Of a stretch of DNA of 64,000 bases, positions 2,844 through 61,689 are shown in pieces. The notes beneath the pieces were generated by a model. The model was not told the origin of the DNA and searched no databases. It saw only the letters and a list, made by a program, of their open reading frames with translations. The first letter of the stretch is position 1, and each line of letters starts with the position of its first letter. The DNA lies in the IMG/VR virus record IMGVR_UViG_3300045988_111115, positions 14,419-78,418 of that record; one strand, written 5' to 3'. Origin of the DNA: a virus. The translations under genes were made by a program, and so were the position numbers.

Positions 2844-2858
2844 ATGGTGGTGAATTTT

Positions 2859-3479
2859 ATGGAATTGTTAAGCATAGGTAAATTTGCTAAAACTGTAGGA
2901 GTAACTACGACAACATTAAGAAGAATGCATCAAAGTGGCGAGTTAATTCCTGCACATATTTCAAATGGTGGAACAAGGTATTATTCTACGGAACAATTAA
3001 AATTATTCCAATCAAGTAATAATGAAAGAATAGTTATTGGTTATTGTAGAGTAAGTACTCCATCACAAAAAGACGATTTAGAAACACAAGTACAAAATGT
3101 TAAATCATATATGTATGCTAAGGGATATAAATTTGACATTATAAAAGACATTGGTTCGGGTATAAATTATAAAAAGAAAGGTTTAAAAGAACTCATTAAT
3201 AGGATAGAAAATAATGAAGTTTCTAAAGTTGTAATTTTATATAAAGATAGGTTGATTCGATTTGGATTTGAATTAATTGAATATTTGTGTGAAATTAATA
3301 ACGTAGAAATAGAAGTTATAGACAATTCGGAATGTAGTAAAGAGAAAGAATTAACAGATGATTTAATTCAAATTATTACAGTTTTTGCGAATAGATTGTA
3401 TGGACAACGTTCAAAGAAAACAAAACGACTTATTAATGAGGTGAGAAACAATGCTGATAACAAAGAAAATCAGACTTAA
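2859..3479 (+). CDS. tnpA: IS607-family transposase TnpA (serine recombinase with N-terminal MerR-like HTH)
   Basis: HTH FAKTVGVTTTTLRRM and resolvase catalytic region YCRVSTPSQ. The ORF track starts at 2844, but the in-frame ATG at 2859 has the better RBS. Overlaps tnpB as in IS607. Confidence 0.8.
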   Translation: MELLSIGKFAKTVGVTTTTLRRMHQSGELIPAHISNGGTRYYSTEQLKLFQSSNNERIVIGYCRVSTPSQKDDLETQVQNVKSYMYAKGYKFDIIKDIGSGINYKKKGLKELINRIENNEVSKVVILYKDRLIRFGFELIEYLCEINNVEIEVIDNSECSKEKELTDDLIQIITVFANRLYGQRSKKTKRLINEVRNNADNKENQT

Positions 3480-4629
3480 ACCGACAACTGAACAAGAAAT
3501 ATTATTTCGTAAAAGTGCTGGTGTATCGAGATGGGCATATAATTTCTTTTTAGGTGAGAATGAACGAATATACAGAGAGTATATTGACAATGGAAAAGTT
3601 GGTAAGAAAAGCATTAGCGAAGGTGATGTTAGGAAATACATAAATAATATATTAAAACCAACTACTCATTCTTGGCTCAAAGAAGTTGGAAGTAATGTAA
3701 TGAAACAAGGTGTTAAAGATGCCAGTCTTGCATTGCAAAGATATTTTAAAGGCTTGTCTGGAAAGCCCAAATTTAAGTCCAAACATAAAGACAGACCGAG
3801 TTTTTATGTCAATTATGAAAGTCTTTCAAGAAAACAAGGTGGTTTTCAAGGAGAAAAAATAGGCTTTGTAAAAACATCGGAGGCACTTCCTAAACTAAAT
3901 AAAAATGAAAAATATTCAAATCCAAGAATAACGTTTGACGGAAAATATTGGTATCTATCTGTTGGCTATGAAGTGCAAGAAAGCACAGTGGAATTAACAG
4001 ACGAAAGTTTAGGAATAGATTTAGGAGTTAAAGATTTAGCAATTTGTTCAAACGGAAAGGTTTATAAAAATATAAACAAAACTCAAAGAGTTAAAAAGTT
4101 AGAGAAGAAACTAAAACGTGAACAGCGAAAATTATCAAGGAAGATTGAAAATAATATTCAATCATATAAATCAAATAGAAACCCTATATACAAAAGACCT
4201 TTGAAAGAATGTCAAAACATTCAAAAACAAAATCGTCTAATACGAAATATACATAGAAAACTTGCAAATATTCGTCAAAACCATTTACATCAAACAACGA
4301 CAGAGATAGTGAAAACCAAACCATCTCGAATAGTTATGGAAAGTTTAAATGTAAGTGGAATGATGAAAAATAAACATTTATCAAAAGCAATACAACAACA
4401 AAAATTTTATGAATTCAAAAGACAAATTGAATATAAGTCAAAACTAAATGGGATTGAATTCATTCAAGTTGATAAGTTTTATCCAAGTAGTAAAACTTGT
4501 AGTTGTTGTGGAAATATCAAGAAAGATTTAAAACTTTCGGACAGAATGTATAAATGTGATGTTTGTGGTCTGGTTATTGACCGAGATTACAATGCAAGTA
4601 TAAATTTAGCAAATTATGAAGTTATATAA
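3451..4629 (+). CDS. tnpB: TnpB (OrfB) RuvC-like RNA-guided nuclease of an IS605/IS607-family element
   Basis: N-terminal IRLKPTxEQ motif, RuvC-I IDLGVKD, and C-terminal zinc finger CSCCGN...CDVCG followed by DRDYNASINL (RuvC-III). Confidence 0.8.
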   Translation: MLITKKIRLKPTTEQEILFRKSAGVSRWAYNFFLGENERIYREYIDNGKVGKKSISEGDVRKYINNILKPTTHSWLKEVGSNVMKQGVKDASLALQRYFKGLSGKPKFKSKHKDRPSFYVNYESLSRKQGGFQGEKIGFVKTSEALPKLNKNEKYSNPRITFDGKYWYLSVGYEVQESTVELTDESLGIDLGVKDLAICSNGKVYKNINKTQRVKKLEKKLKREQRKLSRKIENNIQSYKSNRNPIYKRPLKECQNIQKQNRLIRNIHRKLANIRQNHLHQTTTEIVKTKPSRIVMESLNVSGMMKNKHLSKAIQQQKFYEFKRQIEYKSKLNGIEFIQVDKFYPSSKTCSCCGNIKKDLKLSDRMYKCDVCGLVIDRDYNASINLANYEVI

Positions 4630-4797
4630 ATTCACTTAAAAGAATTATATAACTATGTACCTATCGCTATTAGGGAATTTACGTCTATGGAGTGTCATAA
4701 CAAATGAAAGTAGCTACGGCAAAATCAGACACGTTGAAGTAGAAAGTCTTAATCGTGAGATAAGGCACAGTATAGATTTATATAAATTAGTTGTAAT

Positions 4798-5814
4798 TTG
4801 TATATGTTTATCATAGCGGATAAAGCTATAACAAGACAGCTTGAATTAGGTGGTGTAGTATTCCACGCTTTTGATATACTTTTCTTTAAAGGTATTGACT
4901 TACGTAAAATGCCTTTGGAAAGACGTAAAGTGTATCTGCATATAGTATGTGATACTTTAAATTCACCTTTTGTGAAAGAGGTAAAGTACTATGATGAAGA
5001 CGGAATAGTAGTACCCCTTTTAAGTATGTCTGATAGGGATAGAATATTGAATAACCCTGAACTATATCCGAATTTAGCTGAGGATATAAAGCACTATATG
5101 TCAAATGCACTGTATTATGAGGAAGATGAGAGTAATGACGGTGAGCCTTTACCTTTTAGAATTTCCAAAGCTTCTTACTATGAGTATATAGTCTTTACAG
5201 GAGGAGAGGGAGTAGTAGTAAAGCCTAAGACAGGTAAGTACTATCACAAAAGAGGTAGAGAGTATGAGAAGATAAAGAAGTTCCTAACAAGAGAATGTAT
5301 TATCTGTGGTTTTACCCCACCTACACAAGCGTATAAGGGTAAGTTCCCTGATGATAGTTGGTCCTATTGGATAGACAATGAGACAGGAGAAAAGCAAGAC
5401 CCTGAAGAGTGTGCTAATATGTCAGCTAAGAAGTTACAAAAGACTTGCACACCTGTTACAAAGTACTACTTTGAAAATTGGGTAGGTAATGTAGAGTATG
5501 GAGTGCTAATCTCCGAAGATGAGATTAAGAAGTTACCTAAGAACAAAAATCACGATATTAGGACAGTCGAAGTATTGACAGACTATAATGACAGAAAGTA
5601 TCTAAAAGTACTTGTTGTAGGTGAATGTAGTGGTTTTGATGATGATGAGAGAGCGTGGTTTACTGAACATAAAGATGAAGTAATCGGTCAAGTAATCGAA
5701 GTCAAAGCTAATGAGATATTCAGAGATACAGGTAAACTTAGACACCCTCGCTATTTGAGACTAAGACCTGATAAGTCGGCTGAACAGTGTACCTTTAAAG
5801 AGCATATACTTTAA
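4798..5814 (+). CDS. ATP-dependent DNA ligase, exon 2 (motifs IIIa-VI)
   Basis: FHAFDILFF (motif IIIa), PLERRK, EGVVVKP (motif IV) and EKIKK (motif V). The real 5' exon boundary is probably 10-30 nt downstream of 4798. Confidence 0.7.
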   Translation: MYMFIIADKAITRQLELGGVVFHAFDILFFKGIDLRKMPLERRKVYLHIVCDTLNSPFVKEVKYYDEDGIVVPLLSMSDRDRILNNPELYPNLAEDIKHYMSNALYYEEDESNDGEPLPFRISKASYYEYIVFTGGEGVVVKPKTGKYYHKRGREYEKIKKFLTRECIICGFTPPTQAYKGKFPDDSWSYWIDNETGEKQDPEECANMSAKKLQKTCTPVTKYYFENWVGNVEYGVLISEDEIKKLPKNKNHDIRTVEVLTDYNDRKYLKVLVVGECSGFDDDERAWFTEHKDEVIGQVIEVKANEIFRDTGKLRHPRYLRLRPDKSAEQCTFKEHIL

Positions 5815-9164: not shown

Positions 9165-9182
9165 AAGTTTGTACCAAACCTC

Positions 9183-9211
9183 TTGACACAGTAATTTTAC
9201 TATGCTAAGAT
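9183..9211 (+). promoter_or_regulatory. sigma-70-like promoter TTGACA-17-TAAGAT
   Basis: Consensus -35 with a 17 nt spacer, upstream of the scaffold gene. Confidence 0.4.
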
Positions 9212-9242: not shown

Positions 9243-10043
9243 ATGAACACTAAAGGTAATTTTAAAGCAGAAGCAAAGGGAGCAATTAGACGTGTAATGT
9301 CAATGGTAGCACTAAGTGTATTTGCAGATGAGGGAGACCCTCAACCACCAACTAATACAGGTGCTACAAGTACTCAGCAAATCAACTATGAAGAGTTGAT
9401 TAAACAGGCAAGACAAGAAGAGAAAGATAAACTCTACGGTCAAATCAATACCCTAAAGGAACGAAACAAAGTATTAGTCGAAAGCAATAACGAAACACTT
9501 ATTAAGTGTGCAGAGTTAAAGGCTCAACTTGAAGCAGAAATCGCAAAGCAGAACAATGGGGAAAAGACAGAAGAAGTACTAAAACTTGAAAAGCGTATCA
9601 GTGAGTTGGAAGATGAGAATAAGACTTTAAAGGAAAGTACACCTGATGAAGCTACTCTAAGACAACAAATTGAAGCCGAGTTTACGGTGAAAAATCACCT
9701 AAGCACAGTTAAGGAAAAGAACAAAGACAAAGTACTTGATGTCTTTATGGACGAGATTACAGGTAACACTGTAGAAGAAATTGATAACTCTTTGGCTAAA
9801 GCTATTGAGAAGTCAGACAGTGTACGTAAGCAAGTAATCGGTGATAAGCCTGACGGTAATAAGAAACCACAGATTGGAGAAGACCCTAAAGACCCTAAGC
9901 AGAGTAAACCTGCAACACCACCTGTAGCAAACCCTAACGGCGGTAGTACAATGCCTAAAGGTTTTGACCCTGAGTATGTACGTGGCTTGCAACCTGGTAC
10001 ACCTGAGTATGAAGAGTTCAGAAAGTCATTAGGTCTACACTAA
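9243..10043 (+). CDS. scaffolding protein
   Basis: Coiled-coil protein rich in E, K and Q, located between portal and capsid. Confidence 0.6.
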   Translation: MNTKGNFKAEAKGAIRRVMSMVALSVFADEGDPQPPTNTGATSTQQINYEELIKQARQEEKDKLYGQINTLKERNKVLVESNNETLIKCAELKAQLEAEIAKQNNGEKTEEVLKLEKRISELEDENKTLKESTPDEATLRQQIEAEFTVKNHLSTVKEKNKDKVLDVFMDEITGNTVEEIDNSLAKAIEKSDSVRKQVIGDKPDGNKKPQIGEDPKDPKQSKPATPPVANPNGGSTMPKGFDPEYVRGLQPGTPEYEEFRKSLGLH

Positions 10044-10079: not shown

Positions 10080-11111
10080 ATGAAAAGAAACCTATTAAAG
10101 ATGATTATTACATTTATGCAGGGTCTGTTCTCAATGTTCAGTACACCTGTATTTGCTGACAGTGCTATGACAACAGCAGTTGTTGACGGTAGCGGTAATG
10201 TAAAGTTTACAGACGCTGTCCGTATGGTTTACTCAAAAGAAATTGAGTACAAGGCACTACCTGTTATGAGATTTATGCAATTCGCTCAAGTCCGTACTGA
10301 GTTGGGTGTAACACCTGGTCTGACGATAACAATGCTCACCTATAATAACCTTAAACTCGGTGGTGCATTGACAGAAATGACGAAAATGCAGACACAAGCT
10401 ATGAGTGGCTCAACAAAGCAGATTACCGTACACGAATATGGTAATGCTATCGGCTTCTCAGAACTTCTTGTACGTTCGTCATTTGATGATATTATGGCAA
10501 GTGCTACCACACTTCTTGGTCGTGACTATGCACAAGTCCTTGATTGTGAACTAAGAGACGTTGCCCTTGAGGGTACTAACATAGTTTACTCAAAGGGTAC
10601 TTCAAGAGCAGAAATTACGGCGGCAGATGTACTTCAAGTTAAGCAAATCAAGGACGCTATCGAAATTCTTGCTACAAACAACGCACCAAAAGTTGCAGGT
10701 GCTAATTGGATATGCTTTGTTCACCCACACCAAAGCCGTACTCTAAGAGACGACAGTGCTTGGATAAACGCTTCAAATTATGGTGCACCTGAACAGCTAT
10801 TTACAGGAGAAATCGGCAGAATTGATGATACACGTTTTATTGAAACAACCCTTATGTGTAATGGTGCTGTTGCTGAGGACGACCCTGCATATGTTGCAGA
10901 ACTTAAAAAGGGTGAGGGCGGAAACCTAACACCTATTTACCAAGCAGTTATTTTCGGAGAAGCTTATTATGGCATTGCTTTCTCACTTCCTGTTGAGTTG
11001 AGAGACAACGGTGTTGATGATTTCGGAAGAGAAAGAGCGTTGGCTTGGTACTCAATCTTTGGTGTAGGTAAGCTACACGACGAGTACGGTGTAGTTATTG
11101 AAACTGCCTAA
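10080..11111 (+). CDS. major capsid protein
   Basis: 343 aa ORF after the scaffold gene with a strong RBS, the HK97-like head gene position. Confidence 0.6.
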   Translation: MKRNLLKMIITFMQGLFSMFSTPVFADSAMTTAVVDGSGNVKFTDAVRMVYSKEIEYKALPVMRFMQFAQVRTELGVTPGLTITMLTYNNLKLGGALTEMTKMQTQAMSGSTKQITVHEYGNAIGFSELLVRSSFDDIMASATTLLGRDYAQVLDCELRDVALEGTNIVYSKGTSRAEITAADVLQVKQIKDAIEILATNNAPKVAGANWICFVHPHQSRTLRDDSAWINASNYGAPEQLFTGEIGRIDDTRFIETTLMCNGAVAEDDPAYVAELKKGEGGNLTPIYQAVIFGEAYYGIAFSLPVELRDNGVDDFGRERALAWYSIFGVGKLHDEYGVVIETA

Positions 11112-50224: not shown

Positions 50225-50518
50225 ATGTTAGATAAAGAGACACCACAAATTGGAGAAGTATATAAACACTTTAAACGTGACCCTGAATTGCCTTGTACGG
50301 ATAATAGCTATTTATACATAGTAAAAGACCTTGCACAGCATACAGAGACCCACGAAGTACTTGTTATCTATCAGGCACTGTATTCACCATTTACAACCTA
50401 TGCAAGACCCTTAGAAATGTTTATGTCTATAGTTGATGAAGAAAAGTACCCTGAGCATAAGGGTGAAAGAAGATTTACACTATTAGGAGGAAACGTATAT
50501 GTGCCAAGAATTGAGTAA
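50225..50518 (+). CDS. DUF1653-like protein
   Basis: YKHFKRDP...[15 protein letters not shown] pattern. Confidence 0.4.
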
Positions 50519-51440
50519 AGAAATAAAAGACAGTGGAGACAGAACAGAGTTTGCTACAGGAGCAGTAAGAGACTTACACGAGGGTAAAGGTCGTTTTGAC
50601 CTTATCCCTCTTGATATAGTAAGTAGGATATTTAATAAAGAGTTTGAAAAGTACAACCCTGTAGCACTTGAAAAGGACTTAAAGCCTGATTATGTTTACA
50701 GGGCAGTAGACAACTTTAAGACTTCGGGTAATGTAACTACTCTTTATGTACTTGCTTACTGCTTTATAAAAAAACTTACAAGCGAGAATACTACACAAGG
50801 AAGTGCTATGTATAAAAGTACTTGGGAGTTTATGCTTGACCTTGCTATCCACTATGAAAACGGTGCTAAGAAGTATGGAGAGAATAATTGGCAGAAAGGA
50901 ATACCTGTACACTGTTGTATAGATAGTGCTTTAAGACACTATACAAAGTACAGAGCAGGTATGACTGATGAGCCACATCACGTTGCTTTTATATGGAACA
51001 TCATAACTGCCATATATGCTATGGAACAGAACAGAGAAGAACTTGACGATTATACTGTGGGCACTTCTAATACAGATGAAAGCTATACACAAGTATGGTC
51101 CAAGACTGCACCTGAAAGACTTATTCATTTAAGCTCAGCAGACGATTGGTATGATTATGCAAAGAATAGTGATGTACACGACTTTGAGAGGTTTATTGAC
51201 TATCTTAGACTATACACAGGTACATTAGACAACGCACTATACCTATACAAAAATGGAAAGCTAAGTGACCTGAAAAAAGATAACCCTCTCGATTACAAGT
51301 GGTTTGTTGATGATTGGTGTACAGGTTATGTAAGAGTTTTAATTGGTCTTATGTGTGCACAAGACTTTTTACAGTTGTCTACAGAAAGCATAAATGAGAG
51401 AGCCGAAAGAGGACTGAATGATAAAGCAAATCTATTTTAG
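50499..51440 (+). CDS. dATP/dGTP pyrophosphohydrolase-like protein
   Basis: FATGAVRD...GKGRFDLIP and [13 protein letters not shown] segments typical of the N-terminal domain of that family. Confidence 0.4.
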
Positions 51441-52072: not shown

Positions 52073-53041
52073 ATGCAACTAATTTTAGAGCCAAAAGTAA
52101 AAGAGATTGAGTATGAGGGTCTTACCCCTCTAAGCCTTATTGAACGTGTAGGCAGAACTTGTTATAAGTCAACATCTGAGTATACAGAAGAGACCGCAAG
52201 AAAGTTTTTTAATATGCTTGCAAGTAAAGGTCATTATTCTATGTTTGAACACGCAAACCTTGTTTTTCAGCTTGATACAAGCTATTGGTTTGAAGATGTT
52301 ATAAACTGTACCGCATATGATACTGAACTTATTAATGCTTTGAGGTACTTTAATGTCACTCAATTCGGAGACAGAATACTTATCAGCGGAAGTATAAGAG
52401 CCTTTAATGAGTGTACTATTTACCCTATTCGTAATCTTCTTTGGAAATGCGAAAATGACGGTGAAGAGATATACCATTATGATACCACAGAGCACTTGAC
52501 AAGCCCTTGTCCCTACACAGGTAATTTGAGCGGTGTTAGATACATTAAAGACCTGAACACTCTATCAAAATTGACCTTAGATGAGGTTTTAGCACATACA
52601 TATATGACCCTTGATATTGAGTGTGACAGAGGTATTACTCACGAACTTGTAAGACACCGTAATTGTGCTTTTGCTCAGGAAAGTACAAGATACTGCAACT
52701 ATACAGCTGATAAGTTCGGAGATGATATTTACTTTATGCGACCACCTGAGATAGCTTTGAAAGACCTTAAAAAGTATGAAAAGATGAAGCAGGCATATGC
52801 AGACAGTGAAAAACTGTACAAAGAACTTGTTACAGGAGGACTTGCACCTGAATTTGCAAGAGGTATTTTACCTACCGCTTTGAAGTCGGAGATAGTCATT
52901 ACAGCTAATCTTAAAGAGTGGAAACACATCATTGATTTACGCTATAAGGAGACTACAGGAAAAGTACACCCTCACATTAAGCAAGTTGCTAAGAAAGCAA
53001 AGGAATTTTACGACAAAAAGCTACTTTCAGTAATTGGCTAA
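52073..53041 (+). CDS. thyX: flavin-dependent thymidylate synthase ThyX
   Basis: ThyX signature RHRx7S is present as ITHELVRHRNCAFAQES. Confidence 0.8.
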   Translation: MQLILEPKVKEIEYEGLTPLSLIERVGRTCYKSTSEYTEETARKFFNMLASKGHYSMFEHANLVFQLDTSYWFEDVINCTAYDTELINALRYFNVTQFGDRILISGSIRAFNECTIYPIRNLLWKCENDGEEIYHYDTTEHLTSPCPYTGNLSGVRYIKDLNTLSKLTLDEVLAHTYMTLDIECDRGITHELVRHRNCAFAQESTRYCNYTADKFGDDIYFMRPPEIALKDLKKYEKMKQAYADSEKLYKELVTGGLAPEFARGILPTALKSEIVITANLKEWKHIIDLRYKETTGKVHPHIKQVAKKAKEFYDKKLLSVIG

Positions 53042-53626: not shown

Positions 53627-53992
53627 ATGCACAGTGTATTGTTGTATAGCTTGATAATTGTTATTATTGTACTTATAATACTTTGTATAGTGTATCAGGT
53701 ACTTAGACCCATAGTGGTTTGCGGTGATAGTATGTTCCCAACTCTAAAAGAGAATGACATATTCTTTGCAGTAAGGGTAACTAAGCATACAGAGTTTAGA
53801 GTAGGAGAGATATACATATACCGTCCACCATATTCAAATGGTAGAAAGCACTATGTTATTAAGAGACTGACACGCATTGAACCCTACAGTAAAAAACTGT
53901 ACTTTGAGGGAGATAACAAAGATGTAAGCTTTGACAGTAGAGCATATGGCTATATATCTCGTGAGGACGTTAAGTTTCGTGTATTAGTTTAG
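53627..53992 (+). CDS. type I signal peptidase (S26 family)
   Basis: N-terminal TM helix, catalytic Ser box GDSMFPTL, Lys box VIKRL, and box E GDNKDVSFDSRAYG. Confidence 0.7.
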   Translation: MHSVLLYSLIIVIIVLIILCIVYQVLRPIVVCGDSMFPTLKENDIFFAVRVTKHTEFRVGEIYIYRPPYSNGRKHYVIKRLTRIEPYSKKLYFEGDNKDVSFDSRAYGYISREDVKFRVLV

Positions 53993-54294: not shown

Positions 54295-54307
54295 GGAGGA
54301 CAGCAGA

Positions 54308-54697
54308 ATGAAGAACATCACAGTAACAAAGAGATTTACTTTTGAAGCAAGTCATAACCTTATTAAGTATGAGGGTAAGTGCTCTAACTTACACGGTCAT
54401 TCCTATAAGTTAGAGGTATCTTTTACAAGTGAGTCGAGATTGAATAGCCAAGGTATGGTGTTAGACTTTAATCTCATTGATGAGATAGTAAAACCTATAG
54501 TAGATAGGTACGACCACCACTATTTAAACGACTTCTTCTCTAACCCGACCGCAGAAGTTATGGCAGGAAGCATTTTTAATGAGATACAGTACATCTTAAG
54601 TGATAGGAATAACATTCCGAACTTTGAGGGTATTTACATTTCAGAAGTTAAGCTGTGGGAGACTGAGAAATGCTTTGTGTCCGTAAAGGGGGATTGA
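54308..54697 (+). CDS. queD: 6-carboxytetrahydropterin synthase QueD
   Basis: CxxxHGH motif (CSNLHGHSYKLEV). ATG 54308 follows GGAGGA. Confidence 0.75.
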   Translation: MKNITVTKRFTFEASHNLIKYEGKCSNLHGHSYKLEVSFTSESRLNSQGMVLDFNLIDEIVKPIVDRYDHHYLNDFFSNPTAEVMAGSIFNEIQYILSDRNNIPNFEGIYISEVKLWETEKCFVSVKGD

Positions 54698-54837: not shown

Positions 54838-55488
54838 ATGCTATACTATGATGAGGTGTTCCAAAGTATTCAAGGTGAGAGTACTTCCGCAGGTCTACCT
54901 TGTGTATTTGTAAGACTGTTTGGTTGTAATGTAGGTTGTTCCTATTGCGACCAACCACAAAAGAAAGAGCAGAAAAAGCGTATAAGCGTTGACAAACTCA
55001 TAAATAAAATACTAAGCTACCATATACCAAGGGTATGTATTACAGGAGGAGAGCCTTTATTGCAACAGGAAATATATCCTGTAGTATATGACCTTGTTAA
55101 AAGGGGTTATGATGTATCTATTGAGACAAGCGGTTGTGTTCCGATTGATAACGACGGTTATGTCAGAAAACATAAATACATTATGGACGTTAAGTGCCCA
55201 AGTAGCAAAGTATCACATAAGAATATTTTTGATAACCTTGCTAAACTGCATTTAATAGATGAGGTTAAGTACGTTATTAAGGATAGAGCTGACTATGATT
55301 TTGCAAGGGACATTATGAGAAAGTACCCTACAAATGCAAAGGTACTTTTCAGTCCTGTAATGGAACTTGATGAAAATGGTACTTGGAAATGTGCCGTTTC
55401 TAAAGACCTTGTTAAGTGGGTATTAGAAGACGGGCTAACCAATGTACGTATTCAAGTACAACTACATAAATTTTTGGAGGTGCAGTAA
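54838..55488 (+). CDS. queE: 7-carboxy-7-deazaguanine synthase QueE (radical SAM)
   Basis: CNVGCSYCD cluster and GGEPLL. Confidence 0.75.
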   Translation: MLYYDEVFQSIQGESTSAGLPCVFVRLFGCNVGCSYCDQPQKKEQKKRISVDKLINKILSYHIPRVCITGGEPLLQQEIYPVVYDLVKRGYDVSIETSGCVPIDNDGYVRKHKYIMDVKCPSSKVSHKNIFDNLAKLHLIDEVKYVIKDRADYDFARDIMRKYPTNAKVLFSPVMELDENGTWKCAVSKDLVKWVLEDGLTNVRIQVQLHKFLEVQ

Positions 55489-55919
55489 TGTTAGACAGAG
55501 AGCCTATAAAAGACTTTAGAGATGAACAGGAACTAAATAGCTGTTTAGAAGAGTGGCAGAGAATACTCTACCTTGATGATTGGGTTATTCAAGCACGTCT
55601 CATAGACCGCCCCTCTTTGGAAGAGATGAGTGGTGAAAATCTACAAGGAAGAAATGAATTTAACATCATAAATAAGTCCTCTGTAATTTATGTAATAAAA
55701 GCAGATGATTATGCTAACTCTACTGTGCGGAAATACTGTGCAGAGAAAGTACTTGTACACGAACTATTGCACTGTAAGTATAATTGGCTAAGTCCTCCCA
55801 ATACCTTAGAGGGTAGGTACTTTGATACCCTTGAACATCAGCTTTTAGAAGATATGGCAAAGTCTTTAATACTTGCCCGATACAATATAACTAAAGATTG
55901 GTTTAGGAATATTGGGTAG
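55488..55919 (+). CDS. hypothetical protein with HExxH motif
   Basis: VLVHELLHC. Confidence 0.35.
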   Translation: MLDREPIKDFRDEQELNSCLEEWQRILYLDDWVIQARLIDRPSLEEMSGENLQGRNEFNIINKSSVIYVIKADDYANSTVRKYCAEKVLVHELLHCKYNWLSPPNTLEGRYFDTLEHQLLEDMAKSLILARYNITKDWFRNIG

Positions 55920-56203: not shown

Positions 56204-56482
56204 ATGGCAAACAAAAACGAACTAATTGAACGTGTATCAAAAGAAATGGGTGTTTCACTTACTCAAGCAAAGACAGCAGTAAACGCAGTACTTCAAGGTA
56301 TTGGTGATACAGTTATTGAAAATGGCAGACTTCAACTTGTTGGTTTCGGCACTTTTGAGGTAAGAGACAGAGCTGAAAGAAAGGGTAAAAACCCTCAGAC
56401 AGGTAAAGAAATGACTATCCCTGCAACAAAGGTATTTGCTTTTAAAGCAGGTAAGACATTGAAAGATAAGCTAAACGCTTAA
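56204..56482 (+). CDS. hup: HU-family histone-like DNA-binding protein
   Basis: Full-length HU signature (NKNELIERVS...GFGTFEVRDRAERKGKNPQTGKEM...FKAGK). Confidence 0.85.
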   Translation: MANKNELIERVSKEMGVSLTQAKTAVNAVLQGIGDTVIENGRLQLVGFGTFEVRDRAERKGKNPQTGKEMTIPATKVFAFKAGKTLKDKLNA

Positions 56483-56556: not shown

Positions 56557-58251
56557 ATGGATAATGATAAAGTAGTAGCATTATGTAGTGGAGGTTTTGA
56601 TAGTATAGTACTACTCCACGACTTACGACATAACAACCCTGACTTAGAAATACATACACTGTTCTTTGATTACGGTCAGAGAAATAAGGTAGCAGAGCAA
56701 AGGTGTGCCGAAAAGGCTTCAAGAAAGCTAAAGTGTACACTACACATAGTAAAGATACCACCAATATCTTGGACTAACAGTAACTTCTATGGTGAAGACT
56801 TTAAAGACGCACCTACACAGTACTTAGAGTATCGCAATTTAATCTTTTTCTCTTATGCCCTGTCATTAGCACAGAGTTATGGAGCAACAGGAATTTATGC
56901 CGCCATACTGAAATCACATTGGGGATATGCTGATACCTCTAAAGAGTTTATAAGTGCTTTAAATACACTGTCTGAGCTACAAGGTATTTCAATATTTACA
57001 CCTTATGCAGATGTAGATAAGAATGCACTCGGTCCTTTAGCATTTGAGTATGGTGTATATGTAGGCGATTGGTTTTCTTGCGACACACCAAAGGTAGATG
57101 AACAAGGCTTACTTGTACCTTGTGGTGAGTGCCCTGATTGTGTAACTCTAAAGAGGTTTGAATATCAGTTGAGTAAATCGCCTGTACGTGAAGCCTTTGT
57201 AAATGGGAAAGTAGACACAACTACACAGAAGTTTCAGGAGAGCTTAAGAGAGTACCCTATAAGAGAATTAAGGGTACTGACTAATAACTCTTGTCAACTT
57301 AAATGCCCCCATTGCTTCTATGGCTTTGATAAGATGAAAGGAGACCCTTTAACATATGATGAGATGTATTGGGTAATAAAGCAAGCTATTAATGACATAG
57401 GTGTTAAGAGTTTGCACTATGCAGGTAAAGAGCCTTTGTTCAATAGAGATATTTGGAGATACATAGAGAGGGTACGACAGGAATACCCTAACATAGAACA
57501 GAGTATTGTTACTAATGGTATAAACGTCACAAGAGACCTTGACTTGATTGTTAAGAACAAGGTAGAACTCTTTCTAAGTATAGATAGTAGCATTTTAAAA
57601 TCTACTGAGGAGCATATCAGAGATATAGTAGTAACACAAGACCTATTGAATGTCCTAAGAAATAAGGGAGTACCTGTAACAGTCTTTATAGACTTACACG
57701 AGGGTACTTATGATAAGGTATATGAACTAATAGACACTCTGAGAAAGAATTGCGGAGTAAGTAATTTTCATATACGTACTCTAAGACCCATAGGAAATGC
57801 TAAAAAGAATAACATAATGCTAAGTGAGGATAAAGTGATGTACGCTTTAGTACAGGCTTATACCTACTGCAAGTGCTATCCTAATGAGGACTTTAAGATA
57901 ACTGTAGATGTAGGCTTAGACTACTCAACAAAGTTGCTACAGGTAGATAATGAGATTACTCGACTAAGCAAAGAGAATTTTGTAAAAGGTTATTTGAATA
58001 TAGCTAAAAACTTCTCTATCTCTTGGGAGTTATTCTGTAATAAATATGTACATACACTTACTGTATCTCCTGACGGATATATTTTTGGTTGTGGTATGGA
58101 ACTTGCTAATGCAGATTATGATAAAATTTCTGTAGGAAATGCTCGTGAGTACACCTTAAAGACACTGCTTGCTATAGGTAAAGAGAAGAGCGTTAGTATC
58201 AATAAGGACATCTGTAAGGGTGATTGTATCACTTGCAAATTTAATAAGTAA
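56557..58251 (+). CDS. queC: QueC (7-cyano-7-deazaguanine synthase) fused to a radical-SAM/SPASM-like domain
   Basis: PP-loop LCSGGFDS and QueC zinc site SCDTP...CGECPDC in aa 1-210. Then CQLKCPHCFY (CxxxCxxC), AGKEPLF, and a C-terminal Cys cluster CG...CKGDCITC. Confidence 0.7.
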   Translation: MDNDKVVALCSGGFDSIVLLHDLRHNNPDLEIHTLFFDYGQRNKVAEQRCAEKASRKLKCTLHIVKIPPISWTNSNFYGEDFKDAPTQYLEYRNLIFFSYALSLAQSYGATGIYAAILKSHWGYADTSKEFISALNTLSELQGISIFTPYADVDKNALGPLAFEYGVYVGDWFSCDTPKVDEQGLLVPCGECPDCVTLKRFEYQLSKSPVREAFVNGKVDTTTQKFQESLREYPIRELRVLTNNSCQLKCPHCFYGFDKMKGDPLTYDEMYWVIKQAINDIGVKSLHYAGKEPLFNRDIWRYIERVRQEYPNIEQSIVTNGINVTRDLDLIVKNKVELFLSIDSSILKSTEEHIRDIVVTQDLLNVLRNKGVPVTVFIDLHEGTYDKVYELIDTLRKNCGVSNFHIRTLRPIGNAKKNNIMLSEDKVMYALVQAYTYCKCYPNEDFKITVDVGLDYSTKLLQVDNEITRLSKENFVKGYLNIAKNFSISWELFCNKYVHTLTVSPDGYIFGCGMELANADYDKISVGNAREYTLKTLLAIGKEKSVSINKDICKGDCITCKFNK

Positions 58252-58264
58252 CCCTCTTGACAAG

Positions 58265-58293
58265 TATTCAAAGGTATGGTAGTATTTAGACAT
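58265..58293 (+). promoter_or_regulatory. promoter TTGACA-17-TAGTAT with TGn extension
   Basis: Consensus -35 and an extended -10. It is followed by a ~95 nt leader. Confidence 0.45.
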
Positions 58294-58385
58294 AGACATA
58301 AGTAGGTGCTGAGGTTTCATATTTCCCTCACACTGTGTATAAGTCCTTATGCCTTAAAATATGTTGTGAAAGGAGGGTGTTTATT

Positions 58386-58568
58386 ATGCTATTCTTGAAA
58401 GTATATGCAGAAAGTGGCGACAGTAACGGCAACGGAAACCGTAGAGGCTTTGACAGAGACGACGGTGGTGTAGGTGGTCTTCAACCTACTACACGTGCAG
58501 GTGCAAGAGCTGTAGGCAATCGTATTACTCGCGGTGGCGGTGGTAGAACTGGCAGAACTGGCAGATAA
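58386..58568 (+). CDS. 60-aa Gly/Arg-rich micro-protein
   Basis: Strong RBS GAAAGGAGGGTG, its own promoter and terminator, a local GC island, and the sequence ...GGGGRTGRTGR. Confidence 0.5.
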   Translation: MLFLKVYAESGDSNGNGNRRGFDRDDGGVGGLQPTTRAGARAVGNRITRGGGGRTGRTGR

Positions 58569-58589
58569 GTAGGATAATACCCTGCGTGA

Positions 58590-58627
58590 CCCCAAAGGGA
58601 GTTTATTCCTTTTGGGGTTTTATTTTT
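58590..58627 (+). terminator. rho-independent terminator
   Basis: CCCCAAAGGG...CCTTTTGGGG followed by TTTTATTTTT. Confidence 0.65.
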
Positions 58628-58644
58628 AGAAAGGAGAATTTAAT

Positions 58645-58872
58645 ATGAGTAAGAAAATCACAACACCTGCAACAGTAGGCAAATTTAACCCAAATGGTAT
58701 TGAAGTAGACCCACAGTCTACACCTGTAGATGCTTATACAGCTACTGCTAAACCTTTTTCAGGGGATAACAAAGCTACAGTAGGCAAACTTCCACAGAAG
58801 TATTCTAAAGGTCTTTTGAACATTGACCCTCAGGTTACTATGCCTTGTTGCTACACAAAGACAGTAAATTAA
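58645..58872 (+). CDS. small protein with repeated ATVGK motif and C-terminal CC
   Basis: Strong RBS, and PATVGKFNP plus KATVGKLPQKY plus MPCCYTK. Confidence 0.45.
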   Translation: MSKKITTPATVGKFNPNGIEVDPQSTPVDAYTATAKPFSGDNKATVGKLPQKYSKGLLNIDPQVTMPCCYTKTVN

Positions 58873-58882
58873 GGAGGATAAA

Positions 58883-59102
58883 TATGAAGATAGAAGATTA
58901 TGATTGGAGAACAATAGAAGATGGTAATACACTTGTAAGGGCGGCAGAGATACAAGGTGACCCTGAACGTCTTGCAATGGCACAAGCATACCTAAATGCA
59001 CAGCAGTCGGCTACAAGAGTAGCTTTAGGTAAGAAGCCTACGGGTTCCGCACCGTCACGCAGAAATAAAGCTACTATCGGTAGTCTACCACAAAACTTTT
59101 AA
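58883..59102 (+). CDS. small protein ending KATIGSLPQNF
   Basis: RBS AAGGAGGA, and a C-terminal motif shared with the preceding gene. Confidence 0.45.
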
Positions 59103-59111
59103 TTACAAGGG

Positions 59112-59672
59112 GTGCAAGAGATGATTAATAATAAAGTTGAAGAGATAAAGAAACACGTTGAAGCTATTGCGGATATACTCGGTATTGAGAAAACAGAGAG
59201 TAACGAAAATACCCCATTAAGAGTGGCTAAGATGTACTGTAATGAACTATTTGTCAACAGGAATAATGATAATATTGAGGAATTAAATTCTCGTATGAAA
59301 GTATTTTCTGCTGACGGTAATTCATCACCTGTTAAGATGGACAATATACCTTTTAACTCTGTTTGTGAACATCATTGGCTACCATTCTTCGGAACAGTGT
59401 CAGTACACTATGAGCCACAAGATAAGATAATAGGTCTTTCTAAAATTCCGAGAGTGGTTAAGTACTTTTCAAAGAAGCCACAGCTACAAGAGAGGTTGAC
59501 ACAAGAGATAGGGGAATATCTTGTATCGGTATTAAAACCTAAGTCTCTGACCGTAACAATAACTGCTACACATACTTGTGTTATGTGCAGAGGTATTGAA
59601 AGTCCTTGTGATACCACTACGGAGTTTAAATACAATGCTTCGAGAGGGGAGATTAATAGTGAAACTACCTAA
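59112..59672 (+). CDS. folE: GTP cyclohydrolase I FolE
   Basis: CEHH zinc motif, SKIPR, and an overall FolE layout. Confidence 0.75.
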   Translation: MQEMINNKVEEIKKHVEAIADILGIEKTESNENTPLRVAKMYCNELFVNRNNDNIEELNSRMKVFSADGNSSPVKMDNIPFNSVCEHHWLPFFGTVSVHYEPQDKIIGLSKIPRVVKYFSKKPQLQERLTQEIGEYLVSVLKPKSLTVTITATHTCVMCRGIESPCDTTTEFKYNASRGEINSETT

Positions 59673-61689
59673 AAAGGTTACACCCATCTTCAAAAAAGCA
59701 GAGGTAGTAGAGAAACCTAAGTATACCGACCTAAGACAAGTAATGGACTATACACGTCCTCTTAATATTTTCTTTTCGGGTGTTGAGTATGAAAGTTACC
59801 TTGAAATACTTTATAACTTGGGTATTCGTAATTTTCTTATGTCTTATGAGTATTTAAGAGGTAAAGGTATTTCTCAGCTTAAAAAGTACCCTGATATGCA
59901 CTTGTTCATAGATAGTGGTGCTTTTACGTACATCAATGACCCAAAGTATGAGGAGTACACTGTTGAGCAGTGGGAAAACCAAATAGAGAAGTACTTGAAT
60001 TGGGCTGAAAAACACAAAGACCAAATATTTGCTATTGCAGACCTTGACCTACAGTATGTAGTAGGGTGTGAGCAAGTTTATGAGTGGAGAAAGAAGTACT
60101 TTGAGCCGTTTATGCTAAGAACAGGAATACCTGTTTGCTTTATGTATCACGACGAGGGTATGTCTCAATGGGAGTATATGTGTAAGCGTTATCCTTATGT
60201 CGGACTTTCTCTTGTAGTTGATAATGGAAATGATGTTAAAGAGATGTTCCGTATAGCTGAAAAGCATAATACACTTATACAAGGTATGGCTTCTACTAAT
60301 ACTCAGATGTTGGTTAATTACCCTTTCTACACAGTAGATAGTACTACTTGGAATGTTGGATTGAAATATGGTGAAATATCTGTTTGGAATGGCTCTAAAA
60401 TGTCTCGTATCAAGAAGCAAGACTTTCAGTCTAAAGGTTTTCCCATTATACAAAGGTACGACAGAGACTTTGATTTTGACCTTATCTTAGAAGAGGATAA
60501 GACAGAAATGATAAAGGTAAATGCCTATGCGTTTGTTATGGCAGAGAAGTACATAAGGGAGCGTTTAAAGTCAAAAATGTATTGGTTTAAAGCTAAGGCA
60601 CAGAAAGTTGACTTGAATAATCTACCTGAGGACTTCTACCCTACCCAAGAGATGATTAATGACAGGACACTTACACTACCTCAGGCTCAAGAGTATGCTA
60701 AGAAGATGAACATTAACCCTGAATATGAGGGAGTACTGAACTTAGTATGTGATTTGACTACTTTTATGAATTGGGATAACCCCGATTATGCAGAACTTGT
60801 AGAGTGGTACAAAGACCCTGAGCAAGAAAAACTTATACAGGAACTTCACGACATCTATGTAAACCGTATAGTAGAAAGTAAAGAGGATATGTATTCCGAC
60901 CTTACTAAATTCTTTACTGAATGTGTTTCAGGTGAGAATGACAAGTTACTACAGTTAGGTACTAACTTTGACCGAATAGTCAAGGAGAGAGAACACTACA
61001 TAGAAGAGGAAGAGACCGAAGTAGTGGAACTTACAGAAGCACAAGTAAGAGATAGAATTTCTTACTTGCTACCTACCCCTGCTGATGAGGTAGACGAAGT
61101 AGCACTTGCTAAAGTAGACAAGGAGATATACAGCCACCTTGACATAAAACCACAGTTTGATGAGAAAGGTAAATTTCTTAAAGGACAGACTATCGCACGA
61201 AAGCCTAAAAAGGTGTATTCAGATAAGTACCCTAAATTGGCTTGTGATACTTGTTTAAATGCGGCGAAGTGTCCTGAGTACAAAGCAGGTTATGTATGTG
61301 CTTTTAACAAGATGTTTAAGCGTTTTGATACCCGAAATATGACAGATATAATGGAGGGTATGCAGAGTATAGTTGGTTACAATATGGAACGTATGCAAAG
61401 GGCAATGATAAATGAAACACTTAATGGTGTTATTGACCCGACCACTACTTCTTTAATGGACCAAAATATACGTTATATGAATATGCTAAAGCAGATGTAC
61501 GAGAACAGCAGTGCTGAGGTACTAAGACAGTCAAGAGTAATTCGCAATGATGGTACACTTGAAGAGACCACACAAGTAGTTAATCCTCAAAGTGGTGGTA
61601 TACTTGAAAAGATATTTGGTGGAATGAATGAGCCACCTAAGAAAAAGACTGAGGAAGAGAAGATTATCATTGAAGAGAATAAAGAATAA
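59635..61689 (+). CDS. dpdA: DpdA-like 7-deazaguanine DNA transglycosylase (TGT fold) with long C-terminal extension
   Basis: FIDSGAFTY resembles the TGT catalytic DSGGFQ motif. It also has a C-terminal Cys cluster CDTC...C...C and sits among folE and queCDE. The start is either ATG 59635 or GTG 59659. Confidence 0.5.
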   Translation: MLREGRLIVKLPKKVTPIFKKAEVVEKPKYTDLRQVMDYTRPLNIFFSGVEYESYLEILYNLGIRNFLMSYEYLRGKGISQLKKYPDMHLFIDSGAFTYINDPKYEEYTVEQWENQIEKYLNWAEKHKDQIFAIADLDLQYVVGCEQVYEWRKKYFEPFMLRTGIPVCFMYHDEGMSQWEYMCKRYPYVGLSLVVDNGNDVKEMFRIAEKHNTLIQGMASTNTQMLVNYPFYTVDSTTWNVGLKYGEISVWNGSKMSRIKKQDFQSKGFPIIQRYDRDFDFDLILEEDKTEMIKVNAYAFVMAEKYIRERLKSKMYWFKAKAQKVDLNNLPEDFYPTQEMINDRTLTLPQAQEYAKKMNINPEYEGVLNLVCDLTTFMNWDNPDYAELVEWYKDPEQEKLIQELHDIYVNRIVESKEDMYSDLTKFFTECVSGENDKLLQLGTNFDRIVKEREHYIEEEETEVVELTEAQVRDRISYLLPTPADEVDEVALAKVDKEIYSHLDIKPQFDEKGKFLKGQTIARKPKKVYSDKYPKLACDTCLNAAKCPEYKAGYVCAFNKMFKRFDTRNMTDIMEGMQSIVGYNMERMQRAMINETLNGVIDPTTTSLMDQNIRYMNMLKQMYENSSAEVLRQSRVIRNDGTLEETTQVVNPQSGGILEKIFGGMNEPPKKKTEEEKIIIEENKE

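Follow-up and report, generated by a model that had tools for sequence, protein, structure and literature searches.

The DNA analysed here, referred to below as the window, is a 64,000-nucleotide (nt) stretch of the IMG/VR virus record IMGVR_UViG_3300045988_111115, and it carries at 58256-58627 a micro-open reading frame (micro-ORF) for a 60-residue protein, enclosed by its own promoter, leader and terminator. This micro-ORF is a real, separately transcribed, conserved gene, and its product belongs to a new protein family that includes gp023 and gp024 of Bacillus phage BCD7. Its leader is a new conserved structured RNA outside Rfam, in which the pairing between a hairpin loop and the flank of the ribosome-binding site (RBS) covaries. 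The best reading of these observations, which we hold tentatively and at somewhat less than an even chance of being right, is that the gene produces an abundant, basic, head- or DNA-associated peptide that is processed by a protease and is preceded by a structured translational leader.

A separately transcribed and conserved micro-protein gene

The unit comprises the following elements, all on the plus strand:

58257-58285 (+): promoter of the sigma-A/sigma-70 type, with ACCCTC directly before the -35 element
58292-58385 (+): 5′ leader of about 94 nt, its start inferred from the -10 element, which holds a conserved pseudoknot or kissing-loop motif
58369-58377 (+): Shine–Dalgarno sequence AAAGGAGGG, read from the sequence
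58386-58568 (+): micro-protein ORF (ATG at 58386, stop codon at 58566-58568; 60 amino acids and the stop)
58386-58409 (+): codons of the N-terminal extension MLFLKVYA, which ends in a [VA]-x-A motif (V-Y-A) and is followed by E
58588-58627 (+): intrinsic terminator, a 14-bp stem at 58588-58619 and then a U-tract

In the promoter, the -35 element (TTGACA, 58257-58262) and an extended -10 element (TGG-TAGTAT, 58277-58285) are separated by a 17-nt spacer, giving a match to 10 of 12 consensus positions in addition to the TG. The product (MLFLKVYAESGDSNGNGNRRGFDRDDGGVGGLQPTTRAGARAVGNRITRGGGGRTGRTGR) begins MLFLKVYAESGDSNG and closes with GGGGRTGRTGR. Of the terminator-like hairpins in the 8 kb that were scanned, the one at 58588-58619 is the best, and a weak match to the Rfam family NsiR1 in this region corresponds simply to that hairpin. 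The G+C content over the micro-ORF is 0.51-0.54 and that of the flanks is 0.31-0.39, a rise that reflects the Gly, Arg and Ala codons of the gene. The original prediction, made from these letters alone, had described a promoter, a leader, a strong RBS, a 60-codon ORF and a terminator forming a self-contained unit with a G+C content far above that of its surroundings, and each of these elements is borne out. It had also placed the unit between the queC–radical-SAM gene and folE, which is correct as to the interval; however, the micro-ORF is not adjacent to folE, as two small ORFs intervene.

Relatives of the unit were recovered by alignment-based scans, after scans of IMG/VR with the micro-protein or the QueC–radical-SAM protein as single queries had given no match. 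The INPHARED phages contain no DNA similarity match to the window. The arrangement of promoter, leader, ORF and terminator recurs in more than 60 related phage loci (designated by L and a number where they must be told apart), in synteny with queC on one side and folE on the other, consistent with the independent transcription that had been proposed. From 60 loci, 73 such micro-ORFs were collected, some phages having two in tandem, and further searches added more. Two near-identical relatives are present in public assemblies. In the more distant of the two, the micro-ORF contains indels of 6 nt and 9 nt, both in frame, and many replacements in the C-terminal half of the protein; the promoter, leader and terminator are nearly unchanged. 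Loci in which QueC is only 31-57% identical to that of the window still have an ORF of 40-94 codons in the same position, with AAAGGAGG located 7-9 nt 5′ of the ATG (as in nearly all members of the family), a gap of 105-170 nt before the micro-ORF, and a hairpin and T-run after it. Moreover, in relatives, the gene that follows the micro-ORF terminator has a -10 element of its own. A conserved homologue read in the minus frame had been named as grounds for rejecting the gene, and the relatives show the opposite: the sense frame is the only one of six that is free of stops in all 20 diverse lineages tested, and the antisense frames are interrupted by stops both in the window and in roughly half or more of its relatives.

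The family extends to a cultured phage. In Bacillus phage BCD7 (NC_019515), the closest cultured relative of the window phage (58% capsid identity), gp024, which begins MLFMNVFATPKGAGGGGGR, and gp023, which begins MLFLNVYATPKSGGG, are two copies of the micro-protein, both annotated as hypothetical. The gene order of BCD7 is the same as that of the window (signal peptidase, SpoVS, QueD, QueE, QueC, gp024, gp023, FolE, DpdA). The BCD7 pair by itself makes up phrog_32714, to which no function is assigned, and we found no paper in the literature dealing with gp023 or gp024. Tandem paralogues also occur in several other lineages (L021-L026, L035 and L068-L078; the BCD7 pair is L218), and the copy at L192:1469-1600 has no N-terminal extension.

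An alignment of 27 members contains a single invariant column, an Ala within M-x(0-4)-[KNT]-[VA]-[YFH]-A. Nothing is conserved past the first 6-9 residues, and the alignment contains no conserved core residue or Cys. The tail past the motif is variable, disordered and rich in Gly, Ser, Asn, Arg and Thr, and often closes with an amphipathic Arg/Asn stretch of the form R..RN....NR[IV]RGR. In the window, the post-motif product is about 52 residues long with an isoelectric point (pI) of 11.8 and a net charge of +5; in most members, the corresponding values are pI 11-12 and +5 to +13. These properties support the earlier description of a basic, Gly/Arg-rich product that probably binds nucleic acid, the binding itself being putative. 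The window micro-protein has no match in Pfam, PHROGs or the PDB, and a profile of the family searched against a set of 5.8 billion proteins gave only 18 weak matches, all on phage-type contigs of 75-80 kb.

A conserved pseudoknotted leader RNA

The leader had been noted to fold as a hairpin, TGAGG-11-CCTCA. That hairpin, P1, is real and covaries, but it is part of a larger structure, as its loop pairs with a segment 5′ of the RBS to form a second helix, P2:

58310-58330 (+): hairpin P1, in which TGAGG (58310-58314) pairs with CCTCA (58326-58330) around the 11-nt loop UUUCAUAUUUC
58318-58324 (+): 5′ strand of P2, CATATTT, within the P1 loop and complementary to 58357-58363
58357-58363 (+): 3′ strand of P2, AAATATG, 5 nt 5′ of the RBS and preceded by the anti-Shine–Dalgarno-like CCTT at 58352-58355

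In relatives, the P2 pairing is kept through at least 14 sequence variants (5′ strand/3′ strand):

Variants 1-5: CATATT/AATATG; CGTATT/AATACG; GTATATT/AATATAC; CTTATT/AATAAG; TTGTT/AACAA
Variants 6-9: ATATTATT/AATAATAT; CTTTCATT/AATGAAAG; CATAATT/AATTATG; CATCAGTT/AATTGATG
Variants 10-14: TGTATT/AATATG (with G-U pairs); AGTATT/AATACT; TAATATT/AATATTA; CTTTCA/TGAAAG; TTTATCT/AGATAAA

Pair counts were taken from a structural alignment of 20 leaders (A8), which was N-padded and made by hand, as MAFFT alone misregistered the leaders. In this alignment, 93.5% of cells are paired, versus 38-52% when the partners are slid, and none of 500 shuffles reaches the observed values. Compensatory changes on both sides are present in 13 of the 15 pairs (7/7 in P1 and 6/8 in P2), and 100% of the P2 cells are paired. 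RNAalifold independently yields P1 as the consensus, with compensatory changes in all five of its P1 pairs. An alignment-free measure of complementarity between the loop and downstream sequence gives a combined Fisher p of 3.6e-4 over 10 lineages. Single leaders are not individually significant in either the complementarity or the pseudoknot tests; owing to their AT-richness, they scored no better than shuffled sequences when each was searched freely for a pseudoknot. Further leaders, with P2 variants not seen before, came from covariance-model searches. Models of P1 only (R1 and R2) found new members without holding the P2 3′ strand in register. Preceding that strand is a conserved CCYUU, which could pair with the AAGG of the RBS.

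The leader matches no Rfam family. In agreement with the earlier statement that it does not fit the preQ1-I riboswitch, neither the segments 58100-58750 and 58284-58392 nor a typical member of the family (L015:4120-4262) gave a match to preQ1-I, -II or -III at E<=10. The compact geometry of preQ1-I is also absent, with an L3 of 25-35 nt and a P2 of 5-10 bp. The base 5′ of the P1 3′ strand is C in most leaders and A in L003, L005, L008, L034, L039, L041 and L060. It is possible that the leader senses a ligand; autogenous control by the basic peptide, or the tuning or stabilizing of a highly expressed mRNA, is equally possible.

A motif and a promoter type shared with scaffold and capsid genes

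The original prediction held that the composition of the micro-protein was unlike that of any structural phage protein. That comparison misses the end of its N-terminal extension, which recurs in two head proteins of the same phage, and a promoter type that the genes share:

9180-9211 (+): scaffold/capsid promoter, with CTCTTGACA at 9180-9188 and TAAGAT at 9206-9211, and 17 nt between TTGACA and TAAGAT
9243-10043 (+): scaffold-like protein, the N-terminal extension of which ends SVFA before DEG (codons 26-29, nt 9318-9329)
10080-11111 (+): major capsid protein (phrog_1357), the signal-peptide-like extension of which ends PVFA before DSA (codons 24-27, nt 10149-10160)

The scaffold N terminus reads MNTKGNFKAEAKGAIRRVMSMVALSVFA followed by DEGD, and that of the capsid protein reads MKRNLLKMIITFMQGLFSMFSTPVFA followed by DSAM. 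Both extensions are 26-28 residues long and resemble signal peptides. Among the 20,296 residues of the plus-strand ORFs of the window, V[FY]A[DE] occurs four times, and the scaffold, capsid protein and micro-protein each account for one of these occurrences, in the N-terminal region. Micro-ORF loci were then paired with capsid loci on the same contigs for comparison of the motifs within one genome:

L011 / L119: micro-protein TVHA, scaffold NVHA, capsid TVHA
L015, L017, L018: micro-protein KAYA, scaffold KAFA, capsid KAHA
L190 / L109: micro-protein KAYA, scaffold RAFA, capsid RAYA
L014, L021: micro-protein KVFA or KVYA, scaffold NVLA, capsid RVHA
BCD7: micro-proteins NVFA and NVYA, scaffold (gp101) TVHA, capsid (gp100) NVFA

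Across about 60 distinct capsid and 35 scaffold N termini, position -1 is always Ala and position -3 is always Ala or Val, and position -2 is variable, being F, Y, H, L, M, K, N or R. These termini were inspected by eye, as automatic site picking often fell on a later Ala in the capsid proteins. More distant capsid homologues that have no extension begin at the predicted mature N terminus. In the micro-proteins, -1 is Ala in all and -3 is A or V in nearly all, L027 being arranged differently. At +1, the three proteins have D, E, G, S, T, A, Q or K and never Pro. Cleavage after Glu of the T4 type was considered and dropped, given that the micro-proteins have E, G, T, S, Q, D or K next to the Ala on its C-terminal side, and some capsid proteins have A there. 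The motif suggests that the micro-protein is a processed, head- or DNA-associated peptide.

The promoters point in the same direction. The exact sequence CTCTTGACA has only two copies in the 64 kb, at 58254 in the micro-ORF promoter and at 9180 in the scaffold/capsid promoter, and in relatives a promoter of the form (A)ACCnnTTGAC-17-TGnTAnnAT is kept at both sites. The common promoter type suggests that the micro-protein, like the scaffold and the capsid protein (the two most abundant head proteins), is expressed at a high level, possibly in coordination with them.

Type I signal peptidases cut behind Ala-X-Ala: positions -1 and -3 hold small residues, and -2 is free. The [VA]-x-A pattern exactly fits this specificity, and the phage encodes a minimal type I signal peptidase of 121 residues (53627-53992, plus strand; Pfam Peptidase_S26, E=1.5e-12, 48.2 bits versus a cutoff of 22.9). 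It has an N-terminal hydrophobic helix, a Ser box (GDSMFPTL), a Lys box (VIKRLT), GDNKDVSFDSRAYG and GDN..S.DSR. A first impression from PHROGs, that this ORF encodes a CI/LexA-type S24 domain, was replaced by the Pfam assignment to S26. Homologues are found 5′ of the que genes in 24 related loci, including gp032 of BCD7. The S26 peptidase is the best candidate for the enzyme because its family cleaves after Ala-X-Ala, and it is plausibly the common protease of all three proteins. Among the scanned window ORFs of at least 110 residues, known prohead protease and Prp Pfam families gave no match. Between queE and the gene for an HU-like protein, 55488-55919 encodes a protein with a HELLH sequence (HExxH metallopeptidase-like) that is invariant in five lineages; this protein has no Pfam family.

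Genomic setting and competing explanations

The window covers most of a myovirus genome of about 74 kb that encodes a large terminase, portal, scaffold-like, major capsid, sheath and tape measure proteins. Neighbours of the micro-ORF, identified by Pfam or PHROG, form a 7-deazaguanine cluster:

54305-54697: QueD
54838-55488: QueE
56204-56482: HU-like protein
56557-58251: QueC fused to a radical-SAM domain
58645-58872 and 58884-59102: two small ORFs after the micro-ORF unit (75 and 72 amino acids)
59112-59672: FolE
59578-61689: DpdA-like transglycosylase

The hosts are probably Bacillota, as BCD7 infects B. cereus and bins of metagenome-assembled genomes point to Eubacteriales and Ca. Fimenecus. 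Streptomyces phage BRock, tried as a comparison, has DpdA without a comparable cluster and was uninformative. Several further features of this region and of the window were observed. The products of the two small ORFs share N[KP]AT[VI]G and DP.ST.P..AYT-type motifs; both ORFs are syntenic in many relatives, are absent from BCD7 and have no family match. Fusions of QueC to a radical-SAM (SPASM-like) domain form more than 120 protein clusters in metagenomes, mostly on phage-type contigs of 70-90 kb. The DpdA-like protein (FIDSGAF motif, phrog_887) has a Cys-rich C-terminal segment that resembles a small terminase subunit (phrog_6902). A few kilobases 5′ of the cluster are genes for a protein with a dATP/dGTP diphosphohydrolase N-terminal domain and for ThyX (50499-51440 and 52073-53041, coordinates inferred by matching the gene order of L001, the window ORFs having been scanned as a batch), a pair that hints at remodelling of the nucleotide pool. 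Elsewhere, an ATP-dependent DNA ligase gene is apparently split by an IS607-like insertion with a serine resolvase and a TnpB-type transposase (1390-2262, 2844-4629, 4684-4745 and 4798-5814), and just downstream of the insertion is a RAGATH-18 RNA (73.5 bits), the sole gathering-level Rfam match in the window.

In the explanation that we favour, the micro-protein would be made from its own strong host-type promoter, which is of the same type as that of the scaffold/capsid operon, and would be synthesized with an N-terminal extension of 5-9 residues ending in [VA]-x-Ala. The extension would most likely be removed by the same protease that trims the scaffold and capsid extensions, for which the phage S26 peptidase is the best candidate. 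The mature peptide, rich in Gly, Arg and Asn, about 40-60 residues long and predicted to be intrinsically disordered, would then bind nucleic acid, and its most plausible role is to accompany the 7-deazaguanine-modified genome as an abundant, protamine-like peptide associated with the head. The pairing of the leader loop beside the RBS would most likely set, or feed back on, translation of the micro-ORF alone. We infer the cleavage and its enzyme, the binding or packaging of DNA and the response of the leader from the sequence features described above.

This explanation has parallels in known systems. The T4 internal proteins IPI-IPIII carry an N-terminal capsid-targeting sequence that is removed by the prohead protease, and they are packaged and injected with the modified DNA. 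As in the micro-protein, where cleavage is predicted, these are small basic proteins with a short cleavable N-terminal tag like that on the major head proteins, and the connection with a phage whose DNA is hypermodified is a suggestive one. By contrast, the two groups have no sequence relationship, T4 gp21 cuts after Glu, and the micro-ORF lies in a DNA-modification cluster; what is seen in the window is the shared N-terminal motif and the shared promoter type. The DNA-condensing virion proteins, protein J of phiX174 and proteins VII and mu of adenovirus, the latter two of which mature through the virion protease, are similar in size, extreme basicity and Gly/Arg/Pro-rich disorder, but are not homologous to the micro-protein, the DNA binding and packaging of which are putative. 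With S26 substrates, the three phage proteins share A or V at -3 (in nearly all of the micro-proteins), an invariant Ala at -1, the variable -2 position and a nearby gene for an S26 peptidase with Ser and Lys boxes, and in the capsid and scaffold proteins the extension looks as though it were made up of n-, h- and c-like regions. They differ from such substrates in being cytoplasmic virion proteins and, for the micro-protein, in the length of the extension.

Several observations weigh against this explanation. The residue at -3 agrees between the capsid and scaffold proteins of one genome in only about 18 of 25 cases, and we therefore call the motif shared rather than strictly co-varying. At 5-9 residues, the micro-protein extension is far too short for a signal peptide and has no hydrophobic core, and the L192 lineage lacks an extension entirely. 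A membrane signal peptidase normally faces outward. The phage S26 peptidases have no positive charges before the hydrophobic helix and Arg or Lys after it, so that by the positive-inside rule the catalytic domain is predicted to face the cytoplasm; the topology that cleavage of virion proteins needs is deduced from this charge distribution alone. We found no report in the literature of a signal peptidase acting in phage head maturation. There are also other candidate enzymes, namely the 143-residue HELLH protein of 55488-55919, a second conserved putative protease in the same cluster, and host Prp as a further alternative. For the leader, the A8 alignment, on which the covariation counts rest, was fitted to the structure by hand; the window leader folds no better than shuffled sequence (minimum free energy z=+0.63), and the R1 and R2 models do not report it at E<=1. 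Finally, the micro-ORF is always found within the 7-deazaguanine cluster and not in the head module, and the micro-protein may have a role in DNA modification.

In one alternative, the leader is a new preQ1-I-like riboswitch sensing the 7-deazapurines preQ0 or preQ1, and the micro-protein is an accessory of DNA modification; it could, for instance, be a basic chaperone of DNA that serves the DpdA transglycosylase and is produced only when the precursor is at certain levels. The unit is always found with queC on one side and folE/dpdA on the other, in a queuosine-precursor gene cluster, and the leader is an H-type pseudoknot between a hairpin loop and a 3′ tail that recalls the class I type I consensus (PMC11625349). 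Its P1 is closed by G-C, the L1 that follows the P1 5′ strand is U-rich, most members place UC or CC before the P1 3′ strand, and a run of A precedes the P2 3′ strand, with P2 adjoining the RBS. However, beyond the absence of any covariance-model match in the window or a typical member, L3 is four to five times longer than the approximately 6 A-rich nt of preQ1-I and contains the anti-Shine–Dalgarno-like CCYUU, and P2 exceeds the usual 3-4 bp. The would-be specificity base, an invariant C in preQ1-I (PMC11625349), is A in several lineages, which is unexpected for a conserved ligand pocket. The regulated gene is neither a que gene nor a transporter gene, and the strong terminator isolates the micro-ORF from folE. 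We regard this alternative as unlikely. We give still less weight to the view that the micro-protein is a regulator that, like lambda N or Tat, is rich in arginine and binds RNA, acting on its own leader and perhaps other transcripts to control translation or termination, with no structural role; the motif would then be no more than a common tag for folding or turnover. T4 gene 32 and E. coli rpsO are established cases of autogenous control by a 5′ pseudoknot, the C-terminal segments (R..RN....NR[IV]RGR) resemble arginine-rich motifs, the structured leader abuts the RBS, and strong terminators punctuate the region. Yet no convincing second copy of the leader came out of covariance-model searches of the window and the loci, the tail is poorly conserved, and both the motif held in common with the capsid proteins and the shared promoter type are left unexplained.

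Two further alternatives concern the enzyme that would act on the micro-protein. Host Prp cuts at the F/A junction in MLxx(D/N)LQ(F/L)FA(S/H)KK of the Firmicutes ribosomal protein bL27 and of the 80alpha capsid and scaffold proteins, and phage 80alpha, which has no prohead protease of its own, thereby provides a precedent for one protease common to several head proteins (PMC5744158, PMC9405229). The extension could likewise be a Prp site (aromatic residue before Ala), making the micro-protein a Prp substrate or a mimic or decoy of the bL27 tail. As in 80alpha, a short N-terminal motif that closes with an aromatic residue and Ala is common to several unrelated proteins of a single phage, the head module has no classical prohead protease, and the host is probably a Firmicute. 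The micro-protein begins with ML, and its aromatic residue and Ala are followed by a sequence rich in G, S, K, R and N like the mature bL27 tail; BCD7 gp024, for example, reads MLFMNVF before ATPKG. The differences are that the motif reads [VA]-x-A and lacks the (D/N)LQ core, the P3 Gln described as crucial in a structural review of Prp being absent; that the residue before Ala in the capsid and scaffold homologues can be K, N, R, L or M, which fits Ala-X-Ala and not Prp; that the phage has its own S26 peptidase; and that a third, tiny basic protein also bears the motif. We consider a Prp site improbable. The original prediction had also raised the possibility that the micro-protein is a substrate for the neighbouring enzyme, a precursor peptide on which the radical-SAM (SPASM) domain of the QueC fusion would act. 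Small peptides are typical substrates of radical-SAM/SPASM enzymes, the micro-ORF lies directly downstream of the fusion in the window, and some homologues of the fusion score a SPASM domain. By contrast, the micro-ORF also follows a stand-alone QueC of about 205-267 residues, in three lengths, in L015-L022, L190, L192, L193 and BCD7, a distribution that departs from the obligate co-occurrence expected of a maturase. The family has no conserved core residue or Cys to be modified, and its own promoter and terminator leave no operon coupling. We regard this possibility as very remote, and the suggestion is not supported.

A more specific form of the processed-peptide explanation, which we consider speculative and rather unlikely as a whole, is that in BCD7-like Bacillota myoviruses a cytoplasm-facing minimal S26 peptidase matures heads by cutting signal-peptide-like Ala-X-Ala propeptides off the scaffold and capsid proteins, with the micro-protein as a third substrate that becomes abundant, is packaged in the manner of a protamine together with the 7-deazaguanine-modified genome and limits its own synthesis by binding its pseudoknotted leader. 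If true, these phages would use a head-maturation route in which a signal-peptidase-type enzyme, of the phage or of the host, acts on one Ala-X-Ala tag carried by the capsid protein, the scaffold and a small cargo peptide; we found no description of such a route for tailed phages in the literature. The micro-proteins would make up a family of very small, basic phage proteins that had so far gone unannotated, including two ‘hypothetical’ genes of BCD7, and their transcripts would carry a new conserved pseudoknotted leader RNA outside Rfam. The finding would also call for caution in reading such gene neighbourhoods, as not every gene inside a 7-deazaguanine cluster need belong to the modification pathway.

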